From positions 1-55,322 of the forward strand of contig CAZTPC010000006.1 of NCBI GenBank assembly GCA_964615565.1: a stretch of 55,322 nt of DNA. The letters are read 5' to 3'. Both the position numbers and the translations under genes were made by a program. The notes beneath the pieces were generated by a model. It was not told the DNA's origin and did not search any database. It saw only the letters and a program-made list of their open reading frames with translations. Origin of the DNA: an uncultured Candidatus Saccharibacteria bacterium. GTDB taxonomy: Bacteria > Patescibacteriota > Saccharimonadia > Saccharimonadales > AWTP1-31. Shown piece after piece: positions 24,036-55,322 of the stretch. Numbering within the stretch: position 1 is the stretch's first letter; each line of letters begins with the position of its first letter.

Positions 24036-24071
24036 TTACGCTCAATATAGCACAGCCATAGTGGGTCGTGC

Positions 24072-24099: not shown

Positions 24100-24154
24100 T
24101 TAAGGTAAGCTTTAATAGCCTAAACAAATAATTAAACATAGGAGGGTGGGCTCC

Positions 24155-24622: not shown

Positions 24623-24643
24623 TAATATTTCGATATTACTGCT

Positions 24644-24674
24644 AAAGACCGGGCTCAAATGAGCTCGGTCTTTT
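24644..24674 (+). terminator. intrinsic terminator after pilA
   Basis: AAAGACCGGGCTC-AAAT-GAGCTCGGTCTTT followed by T. A second AT-rich hairpin, AGTAATAT-TTCG-ATATTACT, lies at 24621-24640. Confidence 0.7.
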
Positions 24675-24749
24675 AGTTGGCACAGTATGCCACGACCGGC
24701 TTGTTACGCTATTGCTTATTGTATTATATTATGCTATAATATTGGCATA

Positions 24750-25796: not shown

Positions 25797-25846
25797 GCAT
25801 AACCAACAGTGGTGAAACGCTAAGCATCAGCGTATACTAGTAGGTA

Positions 25847-28127: not shown

Positions 28128-29719
28128 GGCTTTTTAAGAAGCTAGGAAAGATCAAAAACCAAGATGGGTTTGTTCTACCGGCAGCTCTTGGATTGATTAT
28201 CGTAATCACTGTTTTCGCAGCTGCTACGTTTACTATCGTCGAGAGTAACTTGTATGTTGTAAATACGAATGTAAAGCGCCAGAAGGCTTTGAATATTGCC
28301 GAAGCTGGACTTAATTATTATCTATGGCATCTTAGCCATAGTCCGAACGACTACCAAGATGGCCGGACAGGTATCGTGCCACAAGACGCGACACTTGGAT
28401 ATGGCCCATTTGTGCACAACTATCTTGATGACAACGGACAAAATGCCGGGACGTATACCTTGTACATAAAGCCGACAGGTAGCGGCTCAACCATTGCCCG
28501 AGTACGTTCAATCGGCAAGGTGGCAAACTCCGACATTATCCGGACCATTGACGGCTACCTAGGCGCACCATCCTTCGCCAGCTACGGCGTAGTCTCGGAC
28601 TCAGCACTATGGTTTGGTAGTACCGAAAAAGCTTCTGGTCCGGTTCACTCCAACCAAGGTATCCGTATGGATGGCGTCAATACGGCCGATGTCACCAGTG
28701 CTAATACTACCTATATCCCGCCTTCTTCGCTTGGTGGTAACGGGTCATCCTCGCAGCCAGGAGTGTGGTGCAGCAGCTCGATAACATCGCCCGTAAACTG
28801 CAATACAAGATCAAAAACTGATTGGAGATACCCTGTCCCGTCGGTCGACTTTAACGTAATTAGCGGTAACCTGTGCACCATTAAAAAAACAGCTCTGAGT
28901 GCCAACGCAGCAACTAGTGCTATTGCCAGTCAGGCGACTGCCTGTTCGCAGACGCCTACTACTCGAACATCCTCTTACTTACCCCAACGCGCAACAAACG
29001 GCAGCTACAGTGCTGCCCGAGGATATCTGATCGAACTCAACACGAATGGCACTTACAACCTATATAACGTAAACGGCGAGACAGACACAAGCTCACCATA
29101 TACTAATGCACTTACGTTGGCCTCACTAGGATCAAACATCTCCATCCCTAGCTCGGGCGTTATCTTTGCCGAAGACAATGTCTGGGTGCGTACTAACCCT
29201 ACATATCACGGCCGGGTCACTATTGCAGCCGGACGTCTTGCAACCAGTAGTAACGCCAACGTTACAATCGCAGATGATGTCGTGTATAGCACCAAGAACG
29301 GTAGCGATGCTATCGGCCTTGTCGCCGAGGGACAGATTTCTATTGCGCCGTATGCACCGCCTGCTACTGGAAGTTTTAACTTTGAAGTCGACGCCGCCAT
29401 GATTGCCCAGACTGGGACGGTTGGATACCCTAATGTCTATAACTCTAACAGTAACCGCTGCACTAGAGGTTGGGGCAATGCCAATCAAACGTTCACCTTC
29501 TACGGATCAGTAGCGACTAGGCAGCAGTGGACCTGGACATGGTCGCGAAATGGCTCCTGCCCTGACTCAGTGCAAGTTAGTTCTAACGAATGGGTTTCGG
29601 GCGTATATCACAACGATACTCAGTATGACTACAACCTACTGTATGCACCGCCACCTAGCTTCCCAATAACTAGCAGTTTTTCAATTCTGTCATGGCGAGA
29701 GGTGCTCACCCGACCATGA
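28124..29719 (+). CDS. PilX/GspK-like large minor pilin or tip-associated protein
   Basis: 'KIKNQDG/FVLPAALGLIIVITVFAAATF' lacks Glu+5, as PilX_N-type proteins do. 531 aa, Ser/Thr/Asn-rich. 4-nt overlap with the upstream gene. Confidence 0.65.
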   Translation: MRLFKKLGKIKNQDGFVLPAALGLIIVITVFAAATFTIVESNLYVVNTNVKRQKALNIAEAGLNYYLWHLSHSPNDYQDGRTGIVPQDATLGYGPFVHNYLDDNGQNAGTYTLYIKPTGSGSTIARVRSIGKVANSDIIRTIDGYLGAPSFASYGVVSDSALWFGSTEKASGPVHSNQGIRMDGVNTADVTSANTTYIPPSSLGGNGSSSQPGVWCSSSITSPVNCNTRSKTDWRYPVPSVDFNVISGNLCTIKKTALSANAATSAIASQATACSQTPTTRTSSYLPQRATNGSYSAARGYLIELNTNGTYNLYNVNGETDTSSPYTNALTLASLGSNISIPSSGVIFAEDNVWVRTNPTYHGRVTIAAGRLATSSNANVTIADDVVYSTKNGSDAIGLVAEGQISIAPYAPPATGSFNFEVDAAMIAQTGTVGYPNVYNSNSNRCTRGWGNANQTFTFYGSVATRQQWTWTWSRNGSCPDSVQVSSNEWVSGVYHNDTQYDYNLLYAPPPSFPITSSFSILSWREVLTRP

Positions 29720-29749
29720 TCTACATCTGTTATACTAACCATAACGCTT

Positions 29750-30790
29750 ATGTCTAAAACATACTTTTTTCGTGACCGCCCCATCTTTGGCATAACTATC
29801 AGCCACAGTGATGTTCAAGTCATGCAAGTACTCCATAAAGACGGGAGATTAGTCATCCGAGGCTATGGCTCGGGCGTACTAGATGCAAACACCGTCAAGG
29901 ATGGCATCATTACCAACCCAGAATCAGTCGCAAGAACTATTCGCCTTCTGATAGATAATGCCATCCAGGGCAAGATTACTACCGACCGGCTTGTTCTCTC
30001 TATCCCAAGCGCTCGTACATTTAGTCGTGCTGTTACTATGCCAAACTTACCTCCTGAGCAGCTGGCCGAAGCCGTCATGCTAGAGACCGAGCAATATACA
30101 CCAGTGGCGATCGATAGCCTGTACGTAGATTACACTCCTATCAATAAGATTGATGATCAAACAGAGATTTTCACTGTCGCGGCATCGAAGCAGGTTATTG
30201 ACTCTTACCTAGAAGTCGCCAAGCAGTTGCAACTTGAACCAGTATTGATAGAAACTCGTGCCGATTCCGTACAACGGCTGTTCACTAAGACAAAGTTTGG
30301 TGGAATCCCAAGCGTCCTAATAGATTTCGATAAAGATATGGTTGATATCTCAATTGTCGACAAGCATATTGTTGCTACTGCAACAGTAACAACTGGTCCT
30401 GATTTTAATAATCAGATCACCAAAGCTCTGGCCAACAAGCCAGCACTGCCCAAACTACAACCCGTAGAAGAAGAGCCGACCACAGACACAAAAGGCGACA
30501 ACCAACTACAGCAGTTTATTAAAGAAATTCGCCGCATGGTTCGTTACTATGAAGAACGGTATGATCGTACTCGGCAGATCGAACAGATTGTACTAGTTGG
30601 CGACGAAGCACGCATTCCTAGCCTTGCCGCCCTAATGACCGACCAATTACGACTTGCGGTGCGCACCGTTGATCTGTGGCAGTTATTCGACTACGAACAT
30701 GACCTATCGCCTTTGCCTGTCAACGCAAGTGCTCCGTATATTGCCGTTGCCGGGCTTGCGAGCGTAGATCCGGGAGAGGTGTTTGCATGA
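29750..30790 (+). CDS. pilM: type IV pilus assembly protein PilM (actin-like ATPase fold)
   Basis: Size, the 'FGITISHSDVQVMQV' start and its position immediately upstream of pilN/pilO. TGtTATACT box at 29720-29736. Confidence 0.8.
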   Translation: MSKTYFFRDRPIFGITISHSDVQVMQVLHKDGRLVIRGYGSGVLDANTVKDGIITNPESVARTIRLLIDNAIQGKITTDRLVLSIPSARTFSRAVTMPNLPPEQLAEAVMLETEQYTPVAIDSLYVDYTPINKIDDQTEIFTVAASKQVIDSYLEVAKQLQLEPVLIETRADSVQRLFTKTKFGGIPSVLIDFDKDMVDISIVDKHIVATATVTTGPDFNNQITKALANKPALPKLQPVEEEPTTDTKGDNQLQQFIKEIRRMVRYYEERYDRTRQIEQIVLVGDEARIPSLAALMTDQLRLAVRTVDLWQLFDYEHDLSPLPVNASAPYIAVAGLASVDPGEVFA

Positions 30791-31380
30791 TAAATCTACT
30801 CCCCCATGAACGAAGAAGCGAAATTGGCTTTGCCCGCAAGAACTTCTGGCTACTAAAGCTGTGTGGGATCTTTGCCTTGGTAATCATTGGGGTTGGAGTT
30901 ATTACCATGTCAGGTATTTTATACCTAAGAAGTAGTGAACGATCCTTCCAGCAACAGATCAGTAGCACCAGCCAATCGCTCAACAATCAACAACTCGATA
31001 CTGTTCAAAAGCAAGCCGAGGAGATCTCTGGCAACATCAAACTAACTACAGACGTATTATCCCGACAGGTATTATTCAGTAAACTTCTGCGCCAGATTGG
31101 TGCAGCGATGCCAAGCAACACTAGCCTCAGTGATCTCAAGATCAACAAAGGTGAAAAAGGTATATCGCTCACCGCAAGTGCCGTCGACTACGATGCCGCC
31201 ACTCAGGTACAGGTAAACTTAGCCGACCCAAAGAACAAGATATTTTCTAAGGCAGATATAGTCAGTATTAACTGCGACAAAACCGGAAGCAAATATCCAT
31301 GCACCGTCGTAGTCCGTGCCCTCTTTGGTGACAACGCCTCGTACCTATTCATTACACCAAAAGCAAAGGCCAAATCATGA
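30787..31380 (+). CDS. pilN: type IV pilus assembly protein PilN
   Basis: Canonical 'MINLLPHERR' N-terminus, single TM helix and coiled coil. 4-nt overlap with pilM. Confidence 0.85.
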   Translation: MINLLPHERRSEIGFARKNFWLLKLCGIFALVIIGVGVITMSGILYLRSSERSFQQQISSTSQSLNNQQLDTVQKQAEEISGNIKLTTDVLSRQVLFSKLLRQIGAAMPSNTSLSDLKINKGEKGISLTASAVDYDAATQVQVNLADPKNKIFSKADIVSINCDKTGSKYPCTVVVRALFGDNASYLFITPKAKAKS

Positions 31381-31967
31381 CCCCTAAGCGTATCTTTATG
31401 CTCATGATTGCCGTCACCGGGCTTCTTGGTTTGGCTGTTATCGGGAGTGCTGTTACGAGTACAAATATACTAAAGAAGTACGCAGCCAACCTGATGGAAG
31501 CAAAGCTGCAGAACCGAGTACTAGACGAGCAACAAGATTCGCTAACTAGCGCAAAGAAAGATATTGACACGTACACAGAGCTTAACCTAATAGCCCGATC
31601 CGTAGTGCCACAGGATAAAGACCAAGCTAAAACCGTTCGAAGTATCAACGATGTGGCTAAAAGCCTAGGCATTAAGCTTAGTGGAATTAGTTTCCCACCA
31701 AGTACACTTGGGCAATCTTCCAAAGCGGCCAAAGCTAAAGAAACTCAAGTCACACCGGTAACTGGCCTGAAAGGTTTGTACGAGATGCAGATCACCGTTC
31801 AATCCGACAGCAATACCCCCATAACCTACGACAAGTTCATTGATTTTCTAGAAAAGCTTGAGAACAATCGCCGTACAGCCCAAGTATCCAATATCACCAT
31901 CCTGCCAAATGTCGATGGTAGTAAGCTAACATTTAACCTAGTGCTCAGTACATACATAAAGCCATGA
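31377..31967 (+). CDS. pilO: PilO-like pilus assembly protein
   Basis: Single TM helix, coiled coil, then a small alpha/beta domain. 4-nt overlap with pilN. Confidence 0.6.
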   Translation: MTPKRIFMLMIAVTGLLGLAVIGSAVTSTNILKKYAANLMEAKLQNRVLDEQQDSLTSAKKDIDTYTELNLIARSVVPQDKDQAKTVRSINDVAKSLGIKLSGISFPPSTLGQSSKAAKAKETQVTPVTGLKGLYEMQITVQSDSNTPITYDKFIDFLEKLENNRRTAQVSNITILPNVDGSKLTFNLVLSTYIKP

Positions 31968-39929: not shown

Positions 39930-40847
39930 CTATTCTGCCCACGAGATACCGTTGATATCGTATCCTGCTGGCGATCGGTCCAAAATATAAGACTCATTCA
40001 TAAACTGAATATGCGCTTGTAGCGCACGACCCTCGAGCGGCTGCCGTACTGCACCTGCTTCTAGGTGGTTCTCATTAAGATATGGGTAAATCGCTGTCGA
40101 AGCAAAGTCTACATAGGTATCCCACGTAGCATCAAAAAGTGTCTTGCCAGTACCTGGCAGAATTGTAGTTAGCGCCAAGCAAACCCCACTGCCCTCTGTC
40201 CCAACCATCCGAAGGTTGGCGATTTCTTTTGCAGCTTCGACAACCCGTTGGACCCCATCAACTGGCGTGATACCTGTGTCGGCATCCGGCTTGAACCACG
40301 CGGCATCAATGTGCGTATGAGAATACCCCAGAGGCTTTTGTGACCCACGAACGAGCGCCTGAACTCGAGTGCCATCTCCAGCGATTGCAGCGCCATACGC
40401 CTTTGCCTGCTTGGCCATAGCCGGCCAATGGTCCCGGTCAATTCCCTCTCTATTGGCGATAACCGGTACCACTTCAACTATTTCACCCATGGCCTGGTTA
40501 CCGGGTCGATATCTGGAAAGCATAGCGTACGGGTCCACCATCTCCCCACGTATTCGTAGACGATCATCACTTGTGGCTTCTGCACGATCAAATGCCTTCT
40601 GATAGTTAAGCCTCTGGGCGTGATTAACAGTCCACACTGTAAGTGCTGTAGTCATCCATTCTGCAATATTTTGATATGGATTCCTCTCATCCTCGGGCTG
40701 GTCGCCACTAAGCCAATATGATGCCTCTTCAGGTATTAGTGATGCGTCTGAAACCCAGTCCAGAGATTCTCCAAACCTACCAAACTCTTCGCGTAACAAG
40801 GCGCGTCGAGAGGCTTTTACCGGTCCTGATCCTTTTATAACAAACAT
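39930..40847 (-). CDS. hypothetical cytoplasmic protein
   Basis: 305-aa ORF. TATAAT at 40857-40862 lies 9 nt upstream of the ATG. No motif I recognise, although 'GYSHTHID' could be a metal site. Confidence 0.6.
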   Translation of the reverse strand: MFVIKGSGPVKASRRALLREEFGRFGESLDWVSDASLIPEEASYWLSGDQPEDERNPYQNIAEWMTTALTVWTVNHAQRLNYQKAFDRAEATSDDRLRIRGEMVDPYAMLSRYRPGNQAMGEIVEVVPVIANREGIDRDHWPAMAKQAKAYGAAIAGDGTRVQALVRGSQKPLGYSHTHIDAAWFKPDADTGITPVDGVQRVVEAAKEIANLRMVGTEGSGVCLALTTILPGTGKTLFDATWDTYVDFASTAIYPYLNENHLEAGAVRQPLEGRALQAHIQFMNESYILDRSPAGYDINGISWAE

Positions 40848-41067: not shown

Positions 41068-41715
41068 ATGAAACTCTATTTATCCTCTTATGGCCTTGGT
41101 AACCATTCCGACAAACTGGTAGAACTTATCGGTAAAAAGAATGCAAAGATCGGTGTCGTTACTAACGCACTCGACTTCTCTACCGATCTACCACGCGTTG
41201 CCAAACGGCTTGCCGATGAGATAGCCAATCTTGAAGCTCTAGGCTATGAAGCTGAACATCTGGATCTTCGGGATTACTTCGGCAATGACGGGCTAAAAGA
41301 TCGCCTGAATGCATACGATATGGTCTGGGTCACCGGTGGGAACACCTTTATCTTGGCAAAGGCTTACAGACAAAGTGGTTTCGATAAACTCTTTGATGAG
41401 CTAGTAGTTAGTGGAAAGCTTATCTACGGTGGCTACAGCGCTGCCTTCTGCGTACTCGCTAAGTCATTACGTGGCGTCGAGATCATCGACGACAAAGATG
41501 CCGTGGCCGAGGGGTATCTGCAGGGCGAAGTATGGGAAGGACTAGGAGTGATCGACTTCCACCCGATTGTACACTTCCGCTCCGACCACCATGAATCACT
41601 TGATGTCGAAAAAGAATACGAATATGTTGTCAGTGAGAACCTGCCCCATAAAACATTTCGAGACGGCGATGTGTATCTGGTCAATGGCTCAAGCCAACAG
41701 ACTTTAGCAACGTAA
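41068..41715 (+). CDS. peptidase S51 family (dipeptidase E-like)
   Basis: 'MKLYLSSYG', 'VWVTGGNTFIL' and 'GGYSAAF' (nucleophile Ser context), as in PepE-type class I amidotransferase-like peptidases. Confidence 0.7.
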   Translation: MKLYLSSYGLGNHSDKLVELIGKKNAKIGVVTNALDFSTDLPRVAKRLADEIANLEALGYEAEHLDLRDYFGNDGLKDRLNAYDMVWVTGGNTFILAKAYRQSGFDKLFDELVVSGKLIYGGYSAAFCVLAKSLRGVEIIDDKDAVAEGYLQGEVWEGLGVIDFHPIVHFRSDHHESLDVEKEYEYVVSENLPHKTFRDGDVYLVNGSSQQTLAT

Positions 41716-41786
41716 GCTTACAAATACCAATAGATTGACTAATTAGCTATATTACAGTAAAGTATACATATTAAATTGGAGTGATT

Positions 41787-42944
41787 ATGTCTGTAGCTTC
41801 GCCTGAATCTCTAGCCGAGGTGCCGCAATTTCATCATCAAAAAACACTTGAAGTCGTGCAATTCGGTACAACTGCCTTGGGCAATATTGCTGCACGTACA
41901 TATGACCCAACGACCGGCGAATACGGCGATAGTTTGCGCGTAATACACACCGACCTTACAGCAGTTCTAGACGACGTTTATGGAAAAGTTTCTGGGGTTA
42001 TGCTTGGTACTGAAGCAATCGTTCGAGGTCTAGCAACGGGTGCCGCCGGAGAGACTCTCCAACGTGCCGGAAACAGCGTGTCTCTTAACAGTGCCATCCA
42101 TGAAATTGGTCGTGGGCCAGCCGGCGTACAAGCCGCACTTCGCGCGGGACTTGATCGTCAAGTATTCGATGAAGCAGTGCAGGGGGTTAGCCTAAACTAT
42201 GGAGTTCACGCGATTGCTAACTACGGATCAACACATGGCAAACGTGCGATGCGTCTTGGTCTAGAACAACGAGTATACCTTGAGGCATTTGGTGCTGTTT
42301 CTATTAATTCTGGCGCCCACACGATTGCTAACTATGCAGCCAATAGCAGCGCCTTACGCCGTGGTCTAGACCTGAGAGTCGCACACGAAGCTGCAACTGC
42401 GGTCAGCCTTAACTCTGCTACGCATACAATCGCAAACTACGGATCATCCCCTATTGATCAGCGTCATATGCGTAATGACTTAGACCAGCAAGTCGAATCC
42501 GAGGCCATGACAGCAGTCAGCCTTAACTCTGCTACGCATACAATCGCAAACTACGGATCAACACAAGCTGCAAAGGATAGCATGCGTGAGAAATTAAACA
42601 CGCGAGTACGATCCGAAGCCGCCGATGCACATTCAGCAAGCAGTGCGCTTCAGGTAGTCCGTGGCTATGGATTCGGGCCTCAAAAAACTGTCATGGAACA
42701 AGAAGTTGCCCAAAAGTGGCTACCATCTGAGAAAGCGAAGTTAGCCGAACAGAAGAAGACTCTAGCAAAGACAGAACAGGAGCTAGATGATATCTCCGAA
42801 CTTAACATCTTTAAACGTGCAGTTAAATTCCCTGCTTCACAAAGGCTAAAGGCCAAAGCAAAGCTGTACGAAATGTTAATTTCTAGTACTAAAGCTAGTG
42901 TAACGCAACTTTCTGGCATTCTTGGGATCGAAGACCAAGAGTAA
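41787..42944 (+). CDS. repeat protein: about six 38-aa tandem repeats plus a C-terminal coiled coil
   Basis: Recurrent 'VSLNSATHTIANYGS...R.GLD..V..EA' units. Start at the ATG 41787, 5 nt after GGAG. No TM segment or signal peptide. Confidence 0.7.
   Translation: MSVASPESLAEVPQFHHQKTLEVVQFGTTALGNIAARTYDPTTGEYGDSLRVIHTDLTAVLDDVYGKVSGVMLGTEAIVRGLATGAAGETLQRAGNSVSLNSAIHEIGRGPAGVQAALRAGLDRQVFDEAVQGVSLNYGVHAIANYGSTHGKRAMRLGLEQRVYLEAFGAVSINSGAHTIANYAANSSALRRGLDLRVAHEAATAVSLNSATHTIANYGSSPIDQRHMRNDLDQQVESEAMTAVSLNSATHTIANYGSTQAAKDSMREKLNTRVRSEAADAHSASSALQVVRGYGFGPQKTVMEQEVAQKWLPSEKAKLAEQKKTLAKTEQELDDISELNIFKRAVKFPASQRLKAKAKLYEMLISSTKASVTQLSGILGIEDQE
42402..42560 (+). repeat. identical 45-nt direct repeat pair, 114 nt apart, inside the repeat-protein gene
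   Basis: GTCAGCCTTAACTCTGCTACGCATACAATCGCAAACTACGGATCA occurs at 42402-42446 and again at 42516-42560. Confidence 0.9.
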
Positions 42945-43884: not shown

Positions 43885-44670
43885 ATGAAGCTCACCGTTC
43901 TCGGTTCTGGCGCCGCCCTCTTTGATCCCACTACCCCATATCGCTTCCCTGCATCTCATCTTGTAGAGATAGATGGACAACACGTTTTGCTAGACGCTGG
44001 CCTTGGTGTATTACCACAAATAACCAAACTTGGTCTAACAATTGGCGATATTCACGCTATTGTTATCAGCCACTTTCATATAGACCACTTCAACATCCAA
44101 CCTCTGTTGCAACGCTATTTTCTAGACGGCCGATTTGCCGGCAAAAAAGTAAAGTTACACCTTATCGGGCCTCCGGGCATTGCCGAGCGTGCAAAGATTG
44201 GCTTCAACCAGTGCGGGTTTGATTTTGACGAAGACTTTTTGCCAAATGTCGACTATAAAGTTACCGAATTTGTAGATGCCCAGCCAATCATTATTGCCAG
44301 CAACGCGCGCGTTATCCCACGCAAAACCACCCATTACAAAGTCGATGCCTATGCAGTACGGCTTGAATCGGACGGTACAGTTATTGCCTACTCTGGCGAC
44401 TCAACCAACGACGACGTACTCGTGACTACAGCCAAGGATGCCGATATCTTTATCTGTGAAGCATCGGCGCAGGTCGGCAAAGATTCCGACGCAGGACACC
44501 TCAATCCAGCGGATGCAGCACAGACTGCGCACAAAGCAGGTGCAAGACAACTTGTTATAACCCACTATTCCGGACATGACTCTGTAGACGGCATACTTAA
44601 AGCCGCGCGGACTTCCGACTTTACTGGCGAGTTATCAGTGGCCAACGATCTTGATACAGTCAGTACATAG
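43885..44670 (+). CDS. MBL-fold metallo-hydrolase (RNase Z/PhnP-like)
   Basis: 'ISHFHIDHF' HxHxDH motif, with later 'D' and 'THYS' metal ligands. TATACT at 43872-43877 lies 7 nt upstream of the ATG. Confidence 0.8.
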   Translation: MKLTVLGSGAALFDPTTPYRFPASHLVEIDGQHVLLDAGLGVLPQITKLGLTIGDIHAIVISHFHIDHFNIQPLLQRYFLDGRFAGKKVKLHLIGPPGIAERAKIGFNQCGFDFDEDFLPNVDYKVTEFVDAQPIIIASNARVIPRKTTHYKVDAYAVRLESDGTVIAYSGDSTNDDVLVTTAKDADIFICEASAQVGKDSDAGHLNPADAAQTAHKAGARQLVITHYSGHDSVDGILKAARTSDFTGELSVANDLDTVST

Positions 44671-44686
44671 TATTGTTTTATGTAGA

Positions 44687-45184
44687 CTAGTGTTTCTTCT
44701 TTTTCTTGTCTTTGTCTTTGCCACCGTGGCCGCTGCCCCATAACTGCGCCAGACTAATGAGTGCTGCGCCAGAGATGAGCGCCGCCTGATATGAGCTAAG
44801 TTGAACCCAAATATCGTTACCATAGATGCCACTCGAGGTGCCAGGAGGCAGTAGGGGCACCACAAGAAAGAGTACTGATACCCCTGTTAGAAGCGCGGGG
44901 AAGATATTAATAATTGTTTTATTACTGCTAAGTGACCGATTTAAGAATAATAACGTCAGTAACACCGGTACAATCAACAAACCAATCTGGACAATAGACT
45001 GCGTTGTGCTGTTATAGCCTTTTACAAATGTCTGCACCATATCGAGAGCCGTATCACCGACGTAATTGCTAAGAATAACCCCTACTGCCAACGACATAAA
45101 CACAAAGGCCGCCTTAACACGGACAAGGACAATCAGTAACACTGGGGCTAGCCCAATAATCGCCATAAGAATAAGCGGATTCAT
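44687..45184 (-). CDS. hypothetical polytopic membrane protein with Lys-rich tail
   Basis: Five predicted TM helices and a C-terminal 'GGKDKDKKKKKH'. TACTAT at 45191-45196 lies 6 nt upstream of the ATG. Confidence 0.6.
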   Translation of the reverse strand: MNPLILMAIIGLAPVLLIVLVRVKAAFVFMSLAVGVILSNYVGDTALDMVQTFVKGYNSTTQSIVQIGLLIVPVLLTLLFLNRSLSSNKTIINIFPALLTGVSVLFLVVPLLPPGTSSGIYGNDIWVQLSSYQAALISGAALISLAQLWGSGHGGKDKDKKKKKH

Positions 45185-45259
45185 ACGGCTATAGTATCAT
45201 GACCGCCCTCAATAATGCTATTGCCATAAGCACTACTTCATGCTATAATACTGCTTGTA

Positions 45260-46162
45260 ATGACAAAAGAAACAGCCCCAATAACCGATCCTAAACTAAA
45301 CGCCCTACTTATCGGTGGTGGATCTACCTACGGTAATGGTAAAGACCTTGCCGAACAAGGGGAGCTGTTATCTGTCGGTCTAGAGATGACTGGCGAACAA
45401 AAGCCAGAAGTCCTAATTGTCCCATCTGCACGATGGATAAAAGAAGGCCCAATTGACACAATTGTTGGCCGATTTGTTGATCACTATAAAAGCCTTGGCG
45501 TTAACGCTCGTCCGCTACATGGGTTCCTCTATGAACCGCACGAGATACTATACCCAACTATTGAGGAGATGCCTGTTGTCGATAGCCGTATGCCAAGTCA
45601 CGACGAGCTCGAAGAGCGAATCCGCAAGGCAAACCTTATCTTTACCCTAGGTGGTGACTCCCACCGAATGTTGCAAGCGGTATGGAAGCCATATGGTATT
45701 GATGGCATGATGACCGATGCTATTCATAGCGGAACCATTGTAAGTGGCTCTAGTGCCGGTATGCTCTATCCATTTGCAAATATGCAGACAGACGCATCAA
45801 GCCTTAAAACTCCAGAAGATAAAGACTTCCACGTTACCGAAGGACTTGGTCTTATTCCTGACACAGTTGCTGCTGCTCACTACGACACTACTCCAAAAGA
45901 CAATCCCGGCCACCCTCGTAAGGAAGACTTTGAGGCTCGTATGGCAGACCGCCGTGAACTTGGCGAACTTGGTATTGGTGTCGACGAACACGCTGCCCTA
46001 CAGATTGTTAACGGCGGTATCTTACGTGTAGTTGCCGGTTGGGACAATGGTTCTAGTCCTCGTCAAGTACACACCATCCATTACCGCGACCCAAACCAGG
46101 CGCCTGTTATGCGCGATCTTGGCCCACAAGACGATACCTTTACGACTGCTGACTTGGTATAA
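45260..46162 (+). CDS. peptidase S51 family (cyanophycinase/PepE-like)
   Basis: 'LIFTLGGDSHRML' and 'GTIVSGSSAGMLY' (GxSAG nucleophile elbow). TGcTATAAT (45241-45249) lies 10 nt upstream of the ATG. Confidence 0.7.
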   Translation: MTKETAPITDPKLNALLIGGGSTYGNGKDLAEQGELLSVGLEMTGEQKPEVLIVPSARWIKEGPIDTIVGRFVDHYKSLGVNARPLHGFLYEPHEILYPTIEEMPVVDSRMPSHDELEERIRKANLIFTLGGDSHRMLQAVWKPYGIDGMMTDAIHSGTIVSGSSAGMLYPFANMQTDASSLKTPEDKDFHVTEGLGLIPDTVAAAHYDTTPKDNPGHPRKEDFEARMADRRELGELGIGVDEHAALQIVNGGILRVVAGWDNGSSPRQVHTIHYRDPNQAPVMRDLGPQDDTFTTADLV

Positions 46163-46169
46163 ATAGTCT

Positions 46170-46790
46170 ATGACATCACTTGTTTGGTACGCGTGCTACG
46201 GCTCTAACCTAGAGCAAGAACGTTTTATGCACTACATCGATGGTGGTACGCCTGTAGGTGGCACCCGTGATCACCCTGGCACAACCGACAAAACTCCCCC
46301 TCTAGCCACCGAAGCATTCGATATCCCCTATTCCTTATACTTTGCCGGTGAGTCTCAGAACTGGGGTGGCGGCTTTGCCTTGCTGTCGGATGAACTAAGC
46401 GATAAGCCATCTCTTGGTCGCGCTTACCTGGTCACTCTTGATCAATTCGAAGAGATAGTCGCCCAAGAGAGCTTGCGCGACATTCCTGAAAAGATTGACC
46501 CCGACCTACTAAAAAACATGGGGCAATTAGTTCTCGGTGACGGCCAAGGTCGTTACGACAAACTACTCTACTGTGGTGAGCTACTAGATATCCCGGTTAT
46601 TACCTTTACTTGTACTTCACCTCGAGAAGATATCAATAAGCCAAGTGAGGCATATCTATCCACAATTTATCGAGGGCTAACTGACTTATATCAGCTCACT
46701 CCTAGCCAAGCGGCCGATTATCTCGCAGACTGCCCAGGTATCAGGGGTGAGTATACTCACAGCCAGCTTGCAACACTATTTCAAGGATAA
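46170..46790 (+). CDS. gamma-glutamylcyclotransferase-like (GGCT/AIG2 fold) protein
   Basis: N-terminal 'VWYACYGSNL' matches the YxxYGSN(L/M) GGCT signature, with an acidic 'DQFEEIVAQE' segment. Function is tentative. Confidence 0.5.
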   Translation: MTSLVWYACYGSNLEQERFMHYIDGGTPVGGTRDHPGTTDKTPPLATEAFDIPYSLYFAGESQNWGGGFALLSDELSDKPSLGRAYLVTLDQFEEIVAQESLRDIPEKIDPDLLKNMGQLVLGDGQGRYDKLLYCGELLDIPVITFTCTSPREDINKPSEAYLSTIYRGLTDLYQLTPSQAADYLADCPGIRGEYTHSQLATLFQG

Positions 46791-46811
46791 TCGCTTACCC
46801 CTGTTAGTATA

Positions 46812-46840
46812 TTGACAAAATTACGCTTATGCTGTATAAT
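46812..46840 (+). promoter_or_regulatory. perfect consensus sigma70 promoter upstream of the ATP-grasp genes
   Basis: TTGACA (46812-46817), exactly 17-nt spacer, TATAAT (46835-46840). Confidence 0.7.
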
Positions 46841-46853
46841 GCTCGTATAAATG

Positions 46854-46895
46854 ACGTGAACCTTTGCCATATGTTTGGCACACGTTGTTTTTTTT
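46854..46895 (+). terminator. terminator-like hairpin plus T8 tract inside the leader (possible attenuator)
   Basis: ACGTG-(AACCTT)-TGCCA-TATGTT-TGGCA-CACGT, then TG and TTTTTTTT (46888-46895). Lies between the promoter and the ATG at 46920. Confidence 0.5.
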
Positions 46896-46919
46896 ATCAA
46901 CATAAGCTTTTATGTATAT

Positions 46920-48245
46920 ATGTCAGAGTTTCACGAAGCACAACAACGAGACCTAATTTTATTCGTAGGTGGCACCAAAGCTGATGCCACTGCTGTTTGT
47001 GTTAGCTACGAAACCAAGTACAAAAAACGTATCCGTGGTCTCTACCTCGGCAACACGGATTCTCCAAGTTATAACCCAAAGTCTACTGCGCTAGAGCGCA
47101 AGTACCTCATCCAACTTCCTATTGCCTTCCGTAGTATGTCTGCAGAGGAAATCTCTAATCGTCTCAAGCCATACAAGCCAAGACTCCTAACTGCTGTTTG
47201 CACCAAAGAGTACAACATTCGATATTACAAAAAAATTATTCCTCATATCCCATACGTGTTTGCTCCAACCCAAGAATCACTCGATTGGGCAACCGATAAG
47301 GTTGAGATGCGCAAGCGTATCCGTGAACACGCGCCAGAAATTAGTCCGGAATTTATGCTTATCTCAAACATGAGCGAAGCAACAATAAAAAAAGTTGAGA
47401 AGCGCGTTGGGTTCCCACTAGTTGTTAAGCCAGCAGGGCTTGCCGCAAGTAAGCACGTTACAATTTGCTATTACCGCGAAGAGTTTGAGCAGAGCGTAAA
47501 GAAAATCTTTACCTCCCTCAAGAAGATGTACAAAGAACGTGGTCGTGAAGACGCACCAAAGATTCTTGTAGAACAGTTCATGGATGGTGCAATGTATTCC
47601 ATCGACGCTTATGTAAACTCACGTGGTTTCGTATACCACTGTCCGCCAGTGTTTGTTAAAACGGGTGCTAATATTGGCTTTGACGATTTCTTTGGGTACA
47701 TGCGCATCACGCCTGTAATGCTTAAAGACCACAAGGTAGAACGCGCCAACCAAGCCGTGACCCAAGCTATACATGCGCTTGGTCTCCGCAACGTTACCTG
47801 CCACGTCGAACTTATGAAGACCGAAGATGGCTGGAAGATTATCGAAGTTGGCCCACGTGTTGGCGGCTATCGCCACACCATGTACAAACTTTCATATGGA
47901 ATCGACCACTTGCTTAACGATACTCTTATCCGTGTTCCGCAAAAGCCAATTGTTAAAGACCGTGCTCGGCAGCATGTTGCTGTACTGCAGTTCTTTGGCC
48001 GCACCGAAGGCAAGTTAGCTGCAATTGAAGGTGTTAAGCGTATACCAAAACTCGAATCATACGTAAGCGTAGATGTTCACCTAAAGAAAGGTGATGCCTG
48101 TAAGTTTGCCAAGAATGGCGGCAGCAGCGTCTTCGATGTAACCCTTGCTCATAAAACTCGTTCGCAGCTCTTAGCTGATATTCGTCGAATGGAAAAATTC
48201 ATTGTTATCCGTGTGGATAAGGCTAGCAATGCAAAAAAATCCTAA
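46920..48245 (+). CDS. ATP-grasp domain ligase (L-amino-acid-ligase-like), copy 1
   Basis: 'FPLVVKPAGLAASKHV', 'LVEQFMDG' and 'CHVELMKTEDGWKIIEVGPRVGG' follow the ATP-grasp Lys/hinge/Mg-site layout. Start at the ATG 46920 (MSEFHEAQ). Confidence 0.75.
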   Translation: MSEFHEAQQRDLILFVGGTKADATAVCVSYETKYKKRIRGLYLGNTDSPSYNPKSTALERKYLIQLPIAFRSMSAEEISNRLKPYKPRLLTAVCTKEYNIRYYKKIIPHIPYVFAPTQESLDWATDKVEMRKRIREHAPEISPEFMLISNMSEATIKKVEKRVGFPLVVKPAGLAASKHVTICYYREEFEQSVKKIFTSLKKMYKERGREDAPKILVEQFMDGAMYSIDAYVNSRGFVYHCPPVFVKTGANIGFDDFFGYMRITPVMLKDHKVERANQAVTQAIHALGLRNVTCHVELMKTEDGWKIIEVGPRVGGYRHTMYKLSYGIDHLLNDTLIRVPQKPIVKDRARQHVAVLQFFGRTEGKLAAIEGVKRIPKLESYVSVDVHLKKGDACKFAKNGGSSVFDVTLAHKTRSQLLADIRRMEKFIVIRVDKASNAKKS

Positions 48246-49524
48246 GTACCCCGATGCCAAGGTAGTAATCCTTGTCACTAACCCGCTTCACTATCAATAC
48301 TTCTTGCAGGACACCTGGCCAGAATGGCTGTATGTCGTTATTAGCCAAAAGGGTCCGGCCAATGACTACTATGCGCAAGATCAGCCTCGGGTTATTCGAG
48401 TCGATTCTATTAGTGGACCAAGTGAGCTATACGCAGCCAGTTCTCCCCTATTTCCAGATGAAACAAAGTACTTTGCCTGGAAAACGTTTGCTTTTGACGG
48501 TGAAGCTCTCGGTAATTCAAACGAGCAAGTGCGCGATCTCGAAAACAAGGTTATCATTCGCTCAACGATTGATAGCTCATTATTCCCTAAGCATCAAATT
48601 ATTGCTCCAGGCCAAGAAGTACACTTCGACCAACTTTGCGAACAGCTAGACGCCAAGGGTCTTGTGGTACAAACTGCCGTTTCTACAGGTGGTATGGGAA
48701 CATTTATGATCAAGTCTGAGGAAGAACTTCTTGATGCTGTCGAACGACATCAACTAGGTCAATCAGGCGAGTACGTCGTAAGTGAGAGAATCCCTGGTAT
48801 TTCGTATGGTCTGCAGTGCTACTTTAACGGCCAGAATTCTTTCTTCCCACCATATTGGCATAAAGATTTGGTTGGCATTGGTGGTGTCGCAAAACCAGAC
48901 AGTCCAAAGACTCAGTATAGTGGTGCCATCATCGAAAACATGCCTGTGGACATTCATGCCCAAGTTCAGAAAATTGTTGATGCATTTACGCCAGTCCTCG
49001 AACAAAATGGCTATATTGGTATATTTGGTATCGACCTAATACTCGGTGAGGATGGCACTGTCTATCTTGTAGAAATAAACCCTCGCTTCACAGCGGTCAG
49101 CCACCTTTACGCAACACTTATGCGTTCGCTGGGTGCGACCGACTACATAACCACACAACTTTCGCAGCTTATGAACGTTAGTGATCAGTCTGTTGCGCAA
49201 GTTACCAGCCCAATTGATTCCATGTATTACTACATCAAGTTGCAGAACCTCCTTGATAAGCCAGTGACGCTATCAGCTACTTGCAAGGTTGGGGTGTACA
49301 ACGAAAAATTAGAATTCAAGAATAGTCATTATGGCATAGACGGTCTCGACCAAGATGGAGATATCGCTGTCATCCCAGAGTTAGCAACCGGGCGAGAGAT
49401 CCAACCAGGCAGCCGTGGCATTAGCATTGTCGGCAAAGGTAACCCACTCGAAAATTCTGGGACACGACTGACAGACCACTACCTGCATGTCGCCAATAGC
49501 GTTCGTGCCAAATTTACAGACTAA
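48229..49524 (+). CDS. ATP-grasp domain ligase, copy 2
   Basis: 'GLVVQTAVSTGGMGTFMI', 'VVSERIPG' and 'GIDLILGEDGTVYLVEINPRFT'. ATG at 48229 is preceded by AAGG and overlaps copy 1 by 17 nt. Confidence 0.75.
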   Translation: MQKNPKYPDAKVVILVTNPLHYQYFLQDTWPEWLYVVISQKGPANDYYAQDQPRVIRVDSISGPSELYAASSPLFPDETKYFAWKTFAFDGEALGNSNEQVRDLENKVIIRSTIDSSLFPKHQIIAPGQEVHFDQLCEQLDAKGLVVQTAVSTGGMGTFMIKSEEELLDAVERHQLGQSGEYVVSERIPGISYGLQCYFNGQNSFFPPYWHKDLVGIGGVAKPDSPKTQYSGAIIENMPVDIHAQVQKIVDAFTPVLEQNGYIGIFGIDLILGEDGTVYLVEINPRFTAVSHLYATLMRSLGATDYITTQLSQLMNVSDQSVAQVTSPIDSMYYYIKLQNLLDKPVTLSATCKVGVYNEKLEFKNSHYGIDGLDQDGDIAVIPELATGREIQPGSRGISIVGKGNPLENSGTRLTDHYLHVANSVRAKFTD

Positions 49525-49556
49525 CTAACGTTAGTTACTAGCTTTTACGCGTAAAA
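49522..49556. repeat. two perfect palindromes (16 bp and 14 bp) at the convergent junction
   Basis: TAACTAACGTTAGTTA (49522-49537) contains the stop codons of both converging ORFs. TTTTACGCGTAAAA lies at 49543-49556. Confidence 0.85.
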
Positions 49557-49644
49557 AAGCCAGGATAATAAGACCGACAACAATTGCCAGGACACAGATT
49601 AGCAGCGGGATAAGCCCTTCTTGGTTGTCACGTAATTTAAGCAT
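49531..49644 (-). CDS. micro-ORF encoding a 37-aa single-TM peptide
   Basis: MLKLRDNQEGLIPLLICVLAIVVGLIILAFLRVKASN. Below the ORF-track size cutoff. TACAAT at 49652-49657 lies 7 nt upstream of the ATG, the same leaderless pattern as bona fide genes. Confidence 0.45.
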   Translation of the reverse strand: MLKLRDNQEGLIPLLICVLAIVVGLIILAFLRVKASN

Positions 49645-49688
49645 TACTTTTATTGTAGCAGCCCTGCCACCTACGGCAACCTACTGAG

Positions 49689-50570
49689 TTAAACTATGCA
49701 ACGGAGCTGGTGGCGTTGGATAGTTACCGTAACTTTCGCACTAGAGTCTATCGTATACACTTCGCCATCTAGTTGCACAGGCAGTGCCGTAACCGTACTA
49801 AATGAAAAACTTTTCGCCTGCTTCTCATGAGGGACACCAAGCATTGCAGACTTGACCATTACGCCGAGTAGTTTGGCTTTGTCTGCTTCTGCGGTTATAA
49901 CCTCGAATAGCCCATCATCAACACGCGCCGACTTACTCATCTTAAAAAACTTCGACATCTTTCCAACGTTACTGACAATGATGCTATGAAGCGTTTGTGT
50001 ACTTGCACCTATTTTTACCTCAAAAGGCTCCGACTCCAGGAATGCCTTGGCCGTAACCAAGATCTCCTTAGTTGGTGTCAGCTTAGTCTCGTTTAATGCC
50101 TTGCCAATCTCGGAAGTAATACCAAAGCCAATATAACTATGCGCAAATCGCTCCCATTGTTTGCCGTGGATGGTCGTCTGGATTTTAAGAACATCGACCA
50201 CCTGTAATTGCCCGGCTTTTAGCCTACGGATGACATACGGCTTATGCAGTGCTTTGTAATGATCGTTGGCGTTTCCGGACGGGACTAGCCCGGTAACTAC
50301 ACTATGCCCTCTTGGCTTTGGCTGCAGTGCGCCATTAACTAGCTCGTTATAGCCACCGTCCCCGCTAGACGACACAGCCAGTAATGTCTTATGCTTTTGG
50401 ACAAGGCCGGCAACAAGCTCTTCAGCATGCCCTGCGTGTGTTGTAGCTATAACTTGAACGTCGTCCGCTAACTTGGCACGCACTAGTCGTCTTCCGAAAC
50501 GCTTGGCATTACGTTCGCTCTCGCCGGTACTCTTTGGATTATATAAAACAACTGCTTGTTCAAACTGCAT
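49689..50570 (-). CDS. diacylglycerol/lipid kinase family protein (YegS/DagK-like)
   Basis: 'VVLYNPKS', 'ATTHAGHAEEL' and 'SSGDGGYNELVNG' (GGDGT-like). Start set to the ATG at 50570 (TATAAT at 50577-50582, 6 nt upstream). Confidence 0.75.
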   Translation of the reverse strand: MQFEQAVVLYNPKSTGESERNAKRFGRRLVRAKLADDVQVIATTHAGHAEELVAGLVQKHKTLLAVSSSGDGGYNELVNGALQPKPRGHSVVTGLVPSGNANDHYKALHKPYVIRRLKAGQLQVVDVLKIQTTIHGKQWERFAHSYIGFGITSEIGKALNETKLTPTKEILVTAKAFLESEPFEVKIGASTQTLHSIIVSNVGKMSKFFKMSKSARVDDGLFEVITAEADKAKLLGVMVKSAMLGVPHEKQAKSFSFSTVTALPVQLDGEVYTIDSSAKVTVTIQRHQLRCIV

Positions 50571-50628
50571 AGCTATATTATATGTTGCCTGGGCGGAATA
50601 TAATAAACATGTAAACCTGGAGGATACC

Positions 50629-51021
50629 ATGAAAGCAGTACACGGCTTTGGAAGCTACTCAGTAAAAGATGTTAATGCGGCGTTAGAATTTTATAAAGAT
50701 ACGCTAGGTTTGGCTGCAAATATCGATGAAAAGATGGGCATCATGCACGTCCCTATGCCGGGTGGCGGCGAAGTAATGATCTACCCTAAAGGCGATTCAC
50801 ACGAACCAGCTAGTTTTACAGTACTCAATCTCATTGTGACCGACATTGAGGCAAGCGTAGATGAACTGGCAGAAAAAGGTGTCGTATTCGAGCAATACGA
50901 CAGCGAATACAGTAAGACTGACACGAAGGGTATCGCCCGTACCGGAGAAGACGAAGATAGCTCAGCAATCGCTTGGTTTAAAGATCCAGCCGGCAACATA
51001 TTGTCACTAATTGAAGGTTAA
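50629..51021 (+). CDS. VOC family protein (glyoxalase/bleomycin-resistance fold)
   Basis: 'VKDVNAALEFYKDTLGL' and 'FKDPAGNILSLIE'. ATG at 50629 is preceded by GGAGGA. The longer track ORF from 50473 overlaps the divergent gene. Confidence 0.8.
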   Translation: MKAVHGFGSYSVKDVNAALEFYKDTLGLAANIDEKMGIMHVPMPGGGEVMIYPKGDSHEPASFTVLNLIVTDIEASVDELAEKGVVFEQYDSEYSKTDTKGIARTGEDEDSSAIAWFKDPAGNILSLIEG

Positions 51022-54272: not shown

Positions 54273-55322
54273 CTAGGCAGCTAGGAACTCTTCGATAGTC
54301 GACCTGGTTACAGCATTGTCGACATGCTCTACACGCATCACTCCCGGCTCAATTGGCAGCACAAATCGCGTAGTTGCACCGTCGGTGTTCTTTTTGTCGG
54401 CAGCAACATGATCAACGATATCTTCAATACGAGCAACACCGTCGTAGCGGATCGGTAAACCAAATGCGTCGAGCAGAACACGTTGTTGTTCGACCACAGC
54501 TGGCTCTGCGTGACCTAGCGTGACGGCCAGCTGCGCAACGTAGTCCATACCAATTGCAACTGCTTCACCATGGAGAAGCTCCGTGTAGCCACCTGCCGCT
54601 TCTAGGCCATGCGCCAAGGTGTGCCCAAGGTTAAGTAGGATTCGTCCATCTGGTTCTTTCTCGAATGGATCTTTCTCGATAACATCACACTTTTGTTGTA
54701 CGCAGCGGGCAATAATCTTGCCAAGTAGATCAATCTTTTCTTTTGAGAATTGCCGAATATCACTAGCTGCTTCTGCAAGAATTGGGTAGAACTCGGCATC
54801 GAGCATCGCGTACTTTACAATCTCACCAAAACCCTCGATATAAACTCGGGGGTCTAGCGTTTCTAAGACAGATGGATCAGCAACGACTAGTTCGGGTTGA
54901 TAGAATGCTCCTGTTTTATTCTTCCCACCAAGGTCGATCCCAGTCTTGCCACCGATCGATGAGTCAACCATTGCAAGTAATGTAGTCGGAACATGCACTA
55001 GTGGTACTCTTCGGTTATAGGATGCAGCGACATAACCCACTAAATCCCCTATTACACCACCGCCCATTGCAATGATTGTGTCGTTTCGGTTCGCTTTTTG
55101 TCTGGAGAGCTCTAGGATAAAGTTCTGCCACTCGGTAACCGTCTTGTGCTCTTCGCCTGGTTCCATAGACATAATAGAAGCATTAACTCCAGCCTCACCT
55201 AAGGCGCTCATAACTCTTTCGCCGTACAAGCGTTCTACATTTGTATCAGTAACGACAAAGACCCTATTTTCTCCAAGGCCTTCCTGATGGGCGTGACCAC
55301 GGACTCCAAGGCAGCGACCTTC
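54273..55322 (-). CDS. aroB: 3-dehydroquinate synthase, 5' end beyond the window
   Basis: 'GGGVIGDLVGYVAA', 'VPTTLLAMVDSSIGGKTG', 'LNLGHTLAH' and 'LHGEAVAIG'. The frame stays open to nt 55322 ('...RVFVVTDTNVERLYGE'). Confidence 0.92.
   Translation of the reverse strand, partial: EGRCLGVRGHAHQEGLGENRVFVVTDTNVERLYGERVMSALGEAGVNASIMSMEPGEEHKTVTEWQNFILELSRQKANRNDTIIAMGGGVIGDLVGYVAASYNRRVPLVHVPTTLLAMVDSSIGGKTGIDLGGKNKTGAFYQPELVVADPSVLETLDPRVYIEGFGEIVKYAMLDAEFYPILAEAASDIRQFSKEKIDLLGKIIARCVQQKCDVIEKDPFEKEPDGRILLNLGHTLAHGLEAAGGYTELLHGEAVAIGMDYVAQLAVTLGHAEPAVVEQQRVLLDAFGLPIRYDGVARIEDIVDHVAADKKNTDGATTRFVLPIEPGVMRVEHVDNAVTRSTIEEFLAA

Follow-up and report, generated by a model that had tools for sequence, protein, structure and literature searches.

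We report here that positions 45,260 to 49,644 of a stretch of 55,322 nucleotides (nt) from an uncultured Candidatus Saccharibacteria bacterium, hereafter the window, carry two ATP-grasp ligases (AG1 and AG2), an S51-family serine peptidase (S51_300), a protein with a gamma-glutamylcyclotransferase (GGCT) fold and a membrane micro-protein, and that this set of genes, to judge from homology and gene order, is a rearranged, reduced form of an amidoligase/peptidase locus conserved in Saccharimonadia. The reading that we prefer, although we put it at somewhat less than an even chance, is that the ATP-grasp ligases and the S51 peptidase make up a system that builds and trims a short non-ribosomal amino-acid chain. 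Protein identities, folds, synteny, gene fusions and promoter conservation are the observations from which we infer the substrates and products of these enzymes and the functional coupling of ligases and peptidase. The five open reading frames (ORFs) of a preliminary description of this DNA are all in place with their genes intact. They are given here with the features around them, the starts of the two ligases (AG1, ATG at 46920; AG2, ATG at 48229) having been set by homology where the list of ORFs had TTG.

44687..45184, minus strand: membrane protein of 165 amino acids (aa), memb165, from a hydropathy scan; divergent from the S51 gene.
45221..45249, plus strand: promoter-like site TTGCCA-17-TATAAT with an extended TG; 11/12 consensus match.
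45260..46162, plus strand: S51-family serine peptidase S51_300, 300 aa; Pfam S51.
46170..46790, plus strand: GGCT-fold protein, 206 aa; from its predicted structure.
46812..46840, plus strand: sigma-70 consensus promoter TTGACA-17-TATAAT; 12/12 consensus match.
46920..48245, plus strand: AG1, L-amino-acid-ligase-like ATP-grasp protein, 441 aa; Pfam and PDB matches.
48229..49524, plus strand: AG2, divergent three-domain ATP-grasp protein, 431 aa; Pfam and relatedness to PRK06524.
49531..49644, minus strand: single-pass membrane micro-protein, 37 aa, with homologues in relatives; convergent on AG2.
49652..49679, minus strand: promoter-like site TTGCCG-16-TACAAT with TG; 9/12 consensus match.

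The case for a conserved locus comes from the comparison with relatives, in which the figures of co-occurrence rest on about eight independent loci. In the homologous loci that we labelled L005, L006, L007, L010, L012 and L049, and in the contig of the protein P0011, the genes recur in the order DnaK/DnaJ, 37-aa micro-protein, an ATP-grasp ligase of about 310 aa (the small ligase), AG1, AG2, sometimes DUF192, the 165-aa membrane protein and ComEC/YebC/Ruv, and in L006, L007 and L012 the immediate neighbor of the small ligase, on the other strand, is an S51 gene. Genomes that lack AG2 (L045, L047) have the small ligase and AG1 in the same position. The same syntenic slot is occupied in L048 by a micro-protein, a RimK-like ligase, a fusion of two ligases (P0174), a RimB-like peptidase, a true RimK (NF007764, 2e-98), DUF192, a homologue of the membrane protein and ComEC. 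The small ligase matches TIGR02068 (about 1e-55, over positions 155-470 of 862), and its matches among solved structures are CphA1 (7wac/7lgn/7lg5, 1e-57 to 1e-62), GshAB (7e-55), CphA2 (about 1e-46) and RimK at just 5e-12; by these matches, the small ligase of the relatives is homologous to the G domain of cyanophycin synthetase and stands alone as a protein. Neither this G-like ligase nor a remnant of it was found anywhere in the 55-kb window (hmmsearch --max, six-frame translation), and the window has no Mur-like ORF, and thus not the N-G-M arrangement of CphA1.

How the window came to differ is best seen beside its closest relative, the contig of P0011, whose AG1 and AG2 are 87% and 47% identical to those of the window. 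There the order is AG1, AG2, small ligase (minus strand), a 46-aa ORF (minus strand) at the position equivalent to that of the micro-ORF, VOC and YaaA, as against AG1, AG2, micro-ORF (minus strand), a DAGK-like kinase (minus strand), VOC and YaaA in the window, a comparison which indicates that the small ligase was lost precisely between AG2 and the micro-ORF. Moreover, in the window memb165 lies upstream of S51 on the opposite strand, versus downstream of AG2 in the relatives; S51 is co-oriented with the ligases rather than divergent from them; and the micro-protein gene converges on AG2 instead of preceding the small ligase. Throughout these changes of order and strand, S51_300 has remained adjacent to the ligases (window, L006, L007, L012), as has the homologue of memb165 (window, L005, L007, L010, L047, L048, L049). 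That the peptidase, the membrane protein, AG1 and AG2 are found together despite the rearrangement is therefore the best local argument for a functional link. The neighborhood conservation that the preliminary description had called for thus extends to S51, AG1, AG2, memb165 and the micro-ORF, which cluster in relatives, and stops short of the GGCT-fold gene, which is not co-conserved. Its view of the genes as a self-contained module is not borne out for a local copy from whose surroundings the G-like ligase is absent, nor are the genes an oddity of this genome, AG1 being a widely conserved Saccharimonadales gene in a syntenic block.

The locus is organized, as far as its spacing and promoter-like sequences indicate, in two transcription units, S51-GGCT and AG1-AG2. 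Firstly, the GGCT-fold gene starts 7 nt past the S51 stop and is probably co-transcribed with S51, upstream of which the TTGCCA-17-TATAAT site, a putative promoter by consensus match alone, ends 10 nt 5' of the ATG in a near-leaderless arrangement. Secondly, the frames of AG1 and AG2 overlap by 17 nt, and an overlap of 11-20 nt is kept in all six loci examined. Between the two pairs, a spacer of 129 nt holds the perfect TTGACA-17-TATAAT match, some 73 nt upstream of AG1 and at the head of the AG1-AG2 unit. Its hexamers and their spacing are kept in six of the seven aligned relatives (L005, L006, L007, L010, L012, L045) while the flanks diverge; in the sequence used for L047, only the -10 region is retained upstream of AG1. 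Because this conserved promoter precedes AG1, the four genes S51, GGCT, AG1 and AG2 do not form one unit, and the description of them as lying back to back applies within each pair and not across the promoter-bearing spacer. A 5' leader precedes AG1 in all relatives, varying in sequence and in length (about 55-110 nt), and in the window it includes a small hairpin at 46865-46880; a search for riboswitches or leader RNAs gave no Rfam match in 44500-50800 at E up to 1.

The first gene of the region had been described as a cyanophycinase/PepE-like S51 peptidase with a GxSAG elbow. Its membership of S51 was confirmed (PF03575, 72.7 bits versus a cut-off of 23.9, E 4e-20), and so was the nucleophile elbow, GSSAG; His207 is invariant across the subfamily, and the acidic third position is variable (DE in the window, DN or TA in relatives). 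With regard to the narrower assignment, the nearest solved relative is indeed a cyanophycinase, 7uqv being the best PDB match of the subfamily profile (7.6e-11) ahead of Lmo0363 and PepE, but the protein falls below the models of cyanophycinase (TIGR02069, 49.8 bits versus 126.6) and of PepE, dipeptidase E (NF003642, 22.2 versus 156). S51_300, which is 34-40% identical to the S51 proteins adjoining the ligases in L006, L007 and L012, is by these scores a distinct S51 subfamily distantly related to cyanophycinase. The second S51 gene reported 4 kb upstream (41068-41715, plus strand, 215 aa) is real as well, though of a different subfamily, only 16% identical to S51_300. In L005, a 403-aa S51 protein encoded near ComEC/YebC has an N-terminal part homologous to it (35% identity), and the second S51 is therefore not a duplicate of the peptidase of the module.

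Both ligases had been thought to resemble L-amino-acid ligases (LALs) rather than housekeeping ATP-grasp enzymes. The latter half of this statement was borne out for AG1 and AG2 alike, since every PurD, PurK, PurT, Ddl, RimK and CPS model scored them at 15-36 bits against cut-offs of 218-1027, and they were also below the cut-offs of housekeeping biotin carboxylase models; as far as these models reach, AG1 and AG2 are outside all housekeeping ATP-grasp families tested. Neither matched the GRASP (graspetide) maturase models. The resemblance to LALs applies to AG1, which has an ATP-grasp_4 domain (PF13535, 75.3 bits, 5e-21), a LAL C-terminal domain just short of its cut-off (LAL_C2, PF18603, 26.3 bits versus 29.4) that is recorded in many AG1 homologues, and PDB matches to the LAL BL00235 (3vot, 1.6e-12) and to BacD (8e-6). 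The AG1 family profile matched the uncharacterized 4dim (2.6e-15) and again 3vot (2.3e-13), and Lys127, Lys170, Glu297, Glu309 and Arg313 are invariant. That AG1 and AG2 are recent paralogues was considered and rejected (BLASTP E 0.43).

AG1 is common, with 1434 matches at E <=1e-10, and is 65-87% identical in relatives that bear AG2 and about 47-52% identical in many other Saccharimonadales, where it lies within the syntenic block DnaK/DnaJ...ComEC/YebC/Ruv. In the comparison of the window with L005, L006 and L007, AG1 is 69-73% identical; for both YebC and RuvC the identity to L005 is 76%, and AG2, S51, ComEC and the membrane protein are 34-42% identical. AG1 is accordingly under constraint of a housekeeping level, and AG2 is fast-evolving. 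In L005, AG1 itself (5678-7011) is called as two ORFs of 326 and 121 aa that jointly align to the full protein, as a frameshift or an assembly error would cause.

AG2, by comparison, matched only generic ATP-grasp models (Pfam ATP-grasp_3, 2.8e-11). Its best NCBIfam match, PRK06524 'biotin carboxylase-like' (NF005096), reached 35.6 bits against a cut-off of 684; its model (pLDDT 89) matched biotin carboxylase, PurK, PurD and LAL alike in Foldseek (TM about 0.6), and its family profile gave a single marginal match in the PDB, 3df7. The orthologues of AG2 are 34-47% identical and rare, making up 14 clusters in a collection of 5.8 billion proteins and occurring in at least four species among 185,579 genome representatives (a motif-pattern scan that gives a lower bound). 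An exhaustive search found about 12 representatives at E <1e-140 and the next match at 1e-46, the orthologues forming a small, well-separated Saccharibacterial branch. The wider, PRK06524-like family comprises 681 representatives at E <=1e-10, among which no characterized member was found, and the C-terminal domain of AG2 can be aligned to it over profile positions of about 80-425. When AG2 was aligned with 19 distant relatives, which match NF005096 at up to 154 bits, the shared motifs were ENKxxxR, V-x-Q, SGG(K/R)GT and ExN(P/A)R; AG2 itself carries ENKxxxR and ExNPR, and in its SGG(K/R)GT loop the Lys or Arg of most members is replaced by Met. Gln148 of AG2, invariant across the family, replaces the usual ATP-binding Lys (Lys171 of VanA in the alignment). 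In L045 (3012-5803), one of the genomes without an AG2 orthologue, the small ligase and AG1 are preceded by a remote paralogue of AG2 (26% identity, hhalign probability 99.6%) and, after it, by a 474-aa protein that gave no Pfam match.

Fusions occur repeatedly in the AG2 family: the partner is a RimB-type retropepsin peptidase in P0176 and P0201, an amidohydrolase of the FGase family in P0230, a MATCAP carboxypeptidase in P0255 and a GNAT in P0177, and P0174 of L048 combines a G-like and an AG2-like ligase in one chain of 775 aa. These fusions and the P0174 locus point to a recurring design of an ATP-grasp ligase with an opposing peptidase. The pairing of synthesis with breakdown, which the preliminary description had noted in the window, is in this sense a recurring theme of the family.

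The mechanism that we favor for the locus would be as follows. Each ATP-grasp enzyme would activate a carboxylate as an acyl-phosphate and then add an amino acid, and jointly the ligases would build a short non-ribosomal amino-acid chain, preferably a cyanophycin-like oligomer or polymer or, alternatively, a peptide tail. The G-like ligase would make the backbone, and AG1 and/or AG2 would add the second residue in place of the Mur-like M domain of CphA1. The Ser-His S51 peptidase would hydrolyze the product, and synthesis and breakdown would be paired as in CphA/CphE, RimK/RimB and TTL/MATCAP. We favor a cyanophycin-like product because the best solved relatives of the small ligase are cyanophycin enzymes, because the best solved relative of the S51 subfamily is a cyanophycinase, and because the L048 fusion mirrors the two-site layout of CphA1 with an ATP-grasp domain replacing the Mur-like one. 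The catalytic motifs of AG1, AG2 and S51 look intact. In the window, which lacks the G-like ligase, the activity of AG1 and AG2 probably goes no further than making or extending a small peptide, and S51 and the GGCT-fold protein are probably a catabolic pair of separate origin, for alpha/beta-Asp-type and gamma-Glu-type bonds. The amino-acid polymer that had been proposed is strengthened by the relatives, with their G-domain homologue, there the constant partner of AG1, and their cyanophycinase-related S51. A more elaborate form of this scheme, to which we assign a small probability, is a split synthetase composed of ATP-grasp proteins only, which would make a cyanophycin-like, side-chain-decorated polyamide or oligopeptide, with the micro-protein as its primer or membrane anchor and S51 recycling it. 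The G-domain homologue would then extend the backbone with AG1 and/or AG2 standing in for the M domain, and the lineage of the window would have lost the backbone ligase and recruited the GGCT-fold enzyme.

The micro-ORF, in view of its homologues, is a real, conserved gene. L005, L007, L047, L048 and L049 have homologues of 37-38 aa, and one is present in L010, where an ambiguous start keeps it out of this length count; what the family has in common is a basic N-terminus, a [QE]xG[FL]I[PL] motif, a single transmembrane helix and a tail with [RK]V. In L005, L010, L047, L048 and L049, the gene precedes the G-like or RimK-like ligase by 20-150 nt. With one transmembrane helix and a tail of 4-6 residues, the micro-protein does not have the make-up of a precursor of the graspetide/microviridin type. 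The leaderless-type promoter attributed to it is less secure than the gene: a promoter-like site does end 7 nt 5' of the ATG, and this spacing implies a leaderless transcript, but matches of 9/12 are equally frequent in shuffled sequence, so that the site is weak evidence taken by itself. As for memb165, it has 4-5 hydrophobic segments and a Lys-rich C-terminal tail, gave no Pfam match, and shows 26-37% identity to the product of the gene that directly follows AG2 (or AG1/DUF192) in L005, L007, L010, L047, L048 and L049.

The position of the micro-protein gene bears on the main rival to the polymer, namely RimK-like tailing, in which the ligases would add amino acids to a protein or ribosomal peptide, at its C-terminus or a side chain, and S51 would be the eraser; the target could be the 37-aa membrane micro-protein, whose gene closely precedes the small ligase in five loci (at the 20-150 nt given above), or a ribosomal protein such as S6. 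The fusions of AG2-family members to RimB-type, MATCAP and FGase peptidases are in agreement with such a role, as are the bona fide RimK, the RimB-like peptidase and the G-like/AG2-like fusion of the L048 slot, RimK and RimB being an established ligase/protease pair that acts on RpsF (PMC7343187, PMC11957791). RimK is, in addition, under c-di-GMP control (PMC4741518), and there are GGDEF genes beside the locus in L007 and L047. These diguanylate cyclase genes (L007 2700-3425, L047 4837-5778) may adjoin the ligases by coincidence. We nevertheless consider tailing unlikely: AG1 and AG2 gave no match to RimK models, the small ligase is far nearer to the CphA G domain than to RimK (1e-62 versus 5e-12), and the tail of the micro-protein is short and not conserved in sequence.

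The second gene of the region, recognized in the preliminary description as GGCT-like by its YGSNL signature, was confirmed as such at the level of the fold. Its sequence gave no match in Pfam, NCBIfam or the PDB (Pfam and PDB at E up to 10), the GGCT, AIG2 and ChaC models included. An AlphaFold model from its nine-sequence family (pLDDT 92) had human GGCT as all six of its best Foldseek matches (probability 1.0, E 6e-7 to 3e-6; TM 0.53/0.62 for 2i5t/3cry/2rbh), YGSNL occupies residues 10-14, and all nine family members have Glu100, a candidate for the catalytic Glu. The protein accordingly has a gamma-glutamylcyclotransferase fold that is recognizable by predicted structure only. It has eight homologues, all at <=42% identity, and four of their contexts (two Streptomyces, two metagenomic) share nothing with the window locus; a place for the gene in a conserved four-gene module was ruled out by these neighborhoods. 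The gene occupies the slot held by the G-like small ligase in L005, L006, L007, L010 and L049, and it is an unrelated newcomer in the window, in place of the lost ligase. Its composition (GC 0.486; GC at third codon positions, GC3, 0.444) is like that of its neighbors and gives no signal of horizontal transfer.

A GGCT-fold protein beside two ATP-grasp ligases might also be taken to mean that AG1 and then AG2, as LALs, make a free di- or tripeptide, with S51 and GGCT in charge of its turnover or of self-protection; signals, osmolytes, glutathione-like compounds and antimetabolites are the candidates for such a product. There is a known precedent for tripeptide assembly by tandem ATP-grasp ligases, as with PnaC followed by PnaB (PMC11867202). 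Moreover, the nearest solved relatives of AG1 are LALs that form dipeptides, the small ligase also resembles the GshB-like half of GshAB (7e-55), GGCT is an enzyme of the gamma-glutamyl cycle, and a VOC/glyoxalase-family gene lies 1 kb downstream in the window and in the closest relative. Ligases of specialized metabolism are usually patchy and fast-evolving by comparison, whereas AG1 is conserved at 65-87% identity at a fixed syntenic position across the whole class; the locus holds no exporter, resistance or precursor-supply gene, and GGCT is confined to the genome of the window. We regard a small-molecule product as quite unlikely, and nothing in evidence points to the antimetabolite with self-protection of the preliminary description.

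Returning to the build-and-trim system, several observations weigh against it. The chemistry of AG1 and AG2, like that of their close relatives, is read from the families to which they belong. None of the 55 kb encodes the G-like ligase, and the local module may differ in role or be decaying. S51_300 scores far under the cyanophycinase cut-off, and the alignment places its AAH opposite the DQH of cyanophycinase and leaves the Arg cluster unmatched, DQH and the Arg cluster being what we take to be the beta-Asp-Arg/cyanophycin-binding pocket (CphE). S51_300 is not within 7-9 kb of the ligases in L005 and L049, and RimB stands in its stead in L048, so that the link between ligases and peptidase is frequent and not obligatory. 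S51 and AG1 are each preceded by a promoter of their own, and how the two genes are oriented to each other varies between genomes. Saccharibacterial genomes are strongly syntenic, which makes adjacency weaker evidence than usual, and the conservation of AG1, similar to that of YebC and RuvC, would be more in keeping with a core role in the cell than with a storage polymer.

Much of this can be turned into the proposal that there is no module at all, the genes being neighbors through conserved gene order, S51 and GGCT salvaging amino acids from host peptides, and AG1/AG2 having an unrelated core role, for example the addition of amino acids to cell-envelope precursors. The separate promoters, the variable orientation of S51 and its lack in L005 and L049, the unrelated contexts of the GGCT homologues and the synteny of the whole DnaK...ComEC/YebC/Ruv block are all consistent with it; the very high conservation of AG1, together with the linked membrane proteins, would suit an envelope role, and Saccharibacteria are generally known as amino-acid auxotrophs. 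On the other hand, S51_300 and the membrane protein stayed by AG1/AG2 after a rearrangement that changed order and strand, the fusions of peptidases and of a G-like ligase in the family of AG2 argue for real coupling, and there was no similarity to known peptidoglycan side-chain ligases, D-aspartate ligase of the Asl type lying outside the models used. We therefore hold the absence of a module to be unlikely.

With regard to its surroundings, the window has a Saccharibacteria-like gene content (type IV pilus cluster, sortase, lamin-tail-domain (LTD) proteins, RecA, RNase Y, RuvABC, YebC, ComEC), and the closest relatives of its proteins are from metagenome-assembled genomes of Candidatus Saccharibacteria/Patescibacteria. 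The type IV pilus cluster (19241-31967), with a PilB-like ATPase, a PilC-like platform protein, PilM and several unannotated ORFs, is typical of Saccharibacteria. Between ComEC and tRNA-Lys lies an acidic orphan of 305 aa (39930-40847, minus strand) without Pfam or PADLOC match, whose GC of 0.505 is slightly above that of its surroundings. The second S51 gene is followed, before an SDR gene, by the gene of a 387-aa protein without Pfam match (41781-42944, plus strand) made of five or six tandem units of about 35 aa with the motif (A/G)VSLNSA(T)HTIANYG. An MBL-fold hydrolase (43885-44670, plus strand) has as its best NCBIfam match a cyclic-nucleotide-degrading phosphodiesterase (4e-33, far under the cut-off) and also matches RNase Z and, weakly, the Pfam anti-Pycsar protein Apyc1; none of ten locus proteins matched the PADLOC models of anti-phage defense. 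Downstream of the ligases, the DAGK/YegS-type lipid kinase gene between the micro-ORF and the VOC gene (49689-50630, minus strand) overlaps with its 5' end a long TTG-started VOC ORF (50473-51021) and would be a lineage-specific insertion, since no gene stands there in the contig of the closest relative. A 3-dehydroquinate synthase homologue (54273-55229, minus strand), at 318 aa shorter than usual, is found in a genome otherwise biosynthetically minimal in appearance.

The ultra-small, episymbiotic Saccharibacteria synthesize hardly any amino acids themselves, and yet a whole class of them has kept a conserved locus with two to four amino-acid ligases that consume ATP. Their function would reveal important physiology, be it the storage of host-derived nitrogen or amino acids, a surface or membrane-anchored peptide, or regulation by protein tailing, and a function for AG2 would extend to its family of 681 representatives. 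If true, the synthesis of a cyanophycin-like polymer in which no Mur-type domain takes part would add a new route to polyamide biopolymers. What the window itself contributes is more modest, a reduced and rearranged copy with a newcomer GGCT. We found no description of this locus in the literature and nothing on Saccharibacteria ATP-grasp or Patescibacteria amino acid ligases; the one related statement, at the level of KEGG assignments, credits some genomes of Saccharimonadia with a 'cyanophycin synthetase' and with an S51 dipeptidase E (bioRxiv 10.64898/2026.09.16.751625).

Among known systems, human GGCT has the fold predicted for the window protein, which carries YGSNL and the invariant Glu100 and differs in having about 40 extra residues and no sequence-profile match. 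BtrG of butirosin biosynthesis, also of the GGCT fold, removes a gamma-glutamyl group and works with the ATP-grasp enzyme BtrJ; in contrast, the homologues of the window protein are not linked to ATP-grasp genes in the four contexts examined. AG1 is like the LALs (BL00235, BacD/YwfE, TabS, RizA/RizB, PnaB/PnaC) in its ATP-grasp_4 core and weak LAL_C2, and tandem LALs that act in sequence are known (PMC11867202). It is unlike them in its low identity to the characterized LALs, in its scores far below the model cut-offs (35.9 versus 840 for DdaF, 33.2 versus 850 for BacD) and in being a core, syntenic, slowly evolving gene of the whole class outside patchy biosynthetic clusters. RimK/RimB and TTL/MATCAP likewise combine an ATP-grasp amino-acid ligase with an opposing peptidase, and L048 even has a true RimK and RimB, the RimABK ligase/peptidase system being one that acts on RpsF (PMC7343187, PMC11957791); the peptidase of the window, however, is of the S51 serine type and not an aspartic or metallo-peptidase. 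CphA1, finally, has an N-G-M architecture with two active sites (PMC9427784, PMC9262961). Unlike CphA1, the locus has neither the N domain nor the Mur-ligase-like M domain, its second and third ligases are ATP-grasp proteins, its proteins are split rather than fused, and the window is without the G-like ligase. As in CphA1 with CphE/CphB, a G-domain homologue goes together in the relatives with another carboxylate-amine ligase and a cyanophycinase-related S51, and P0174 fuses a G-like and an AG2-like ligase in an echo of the two active sites of CphA1.

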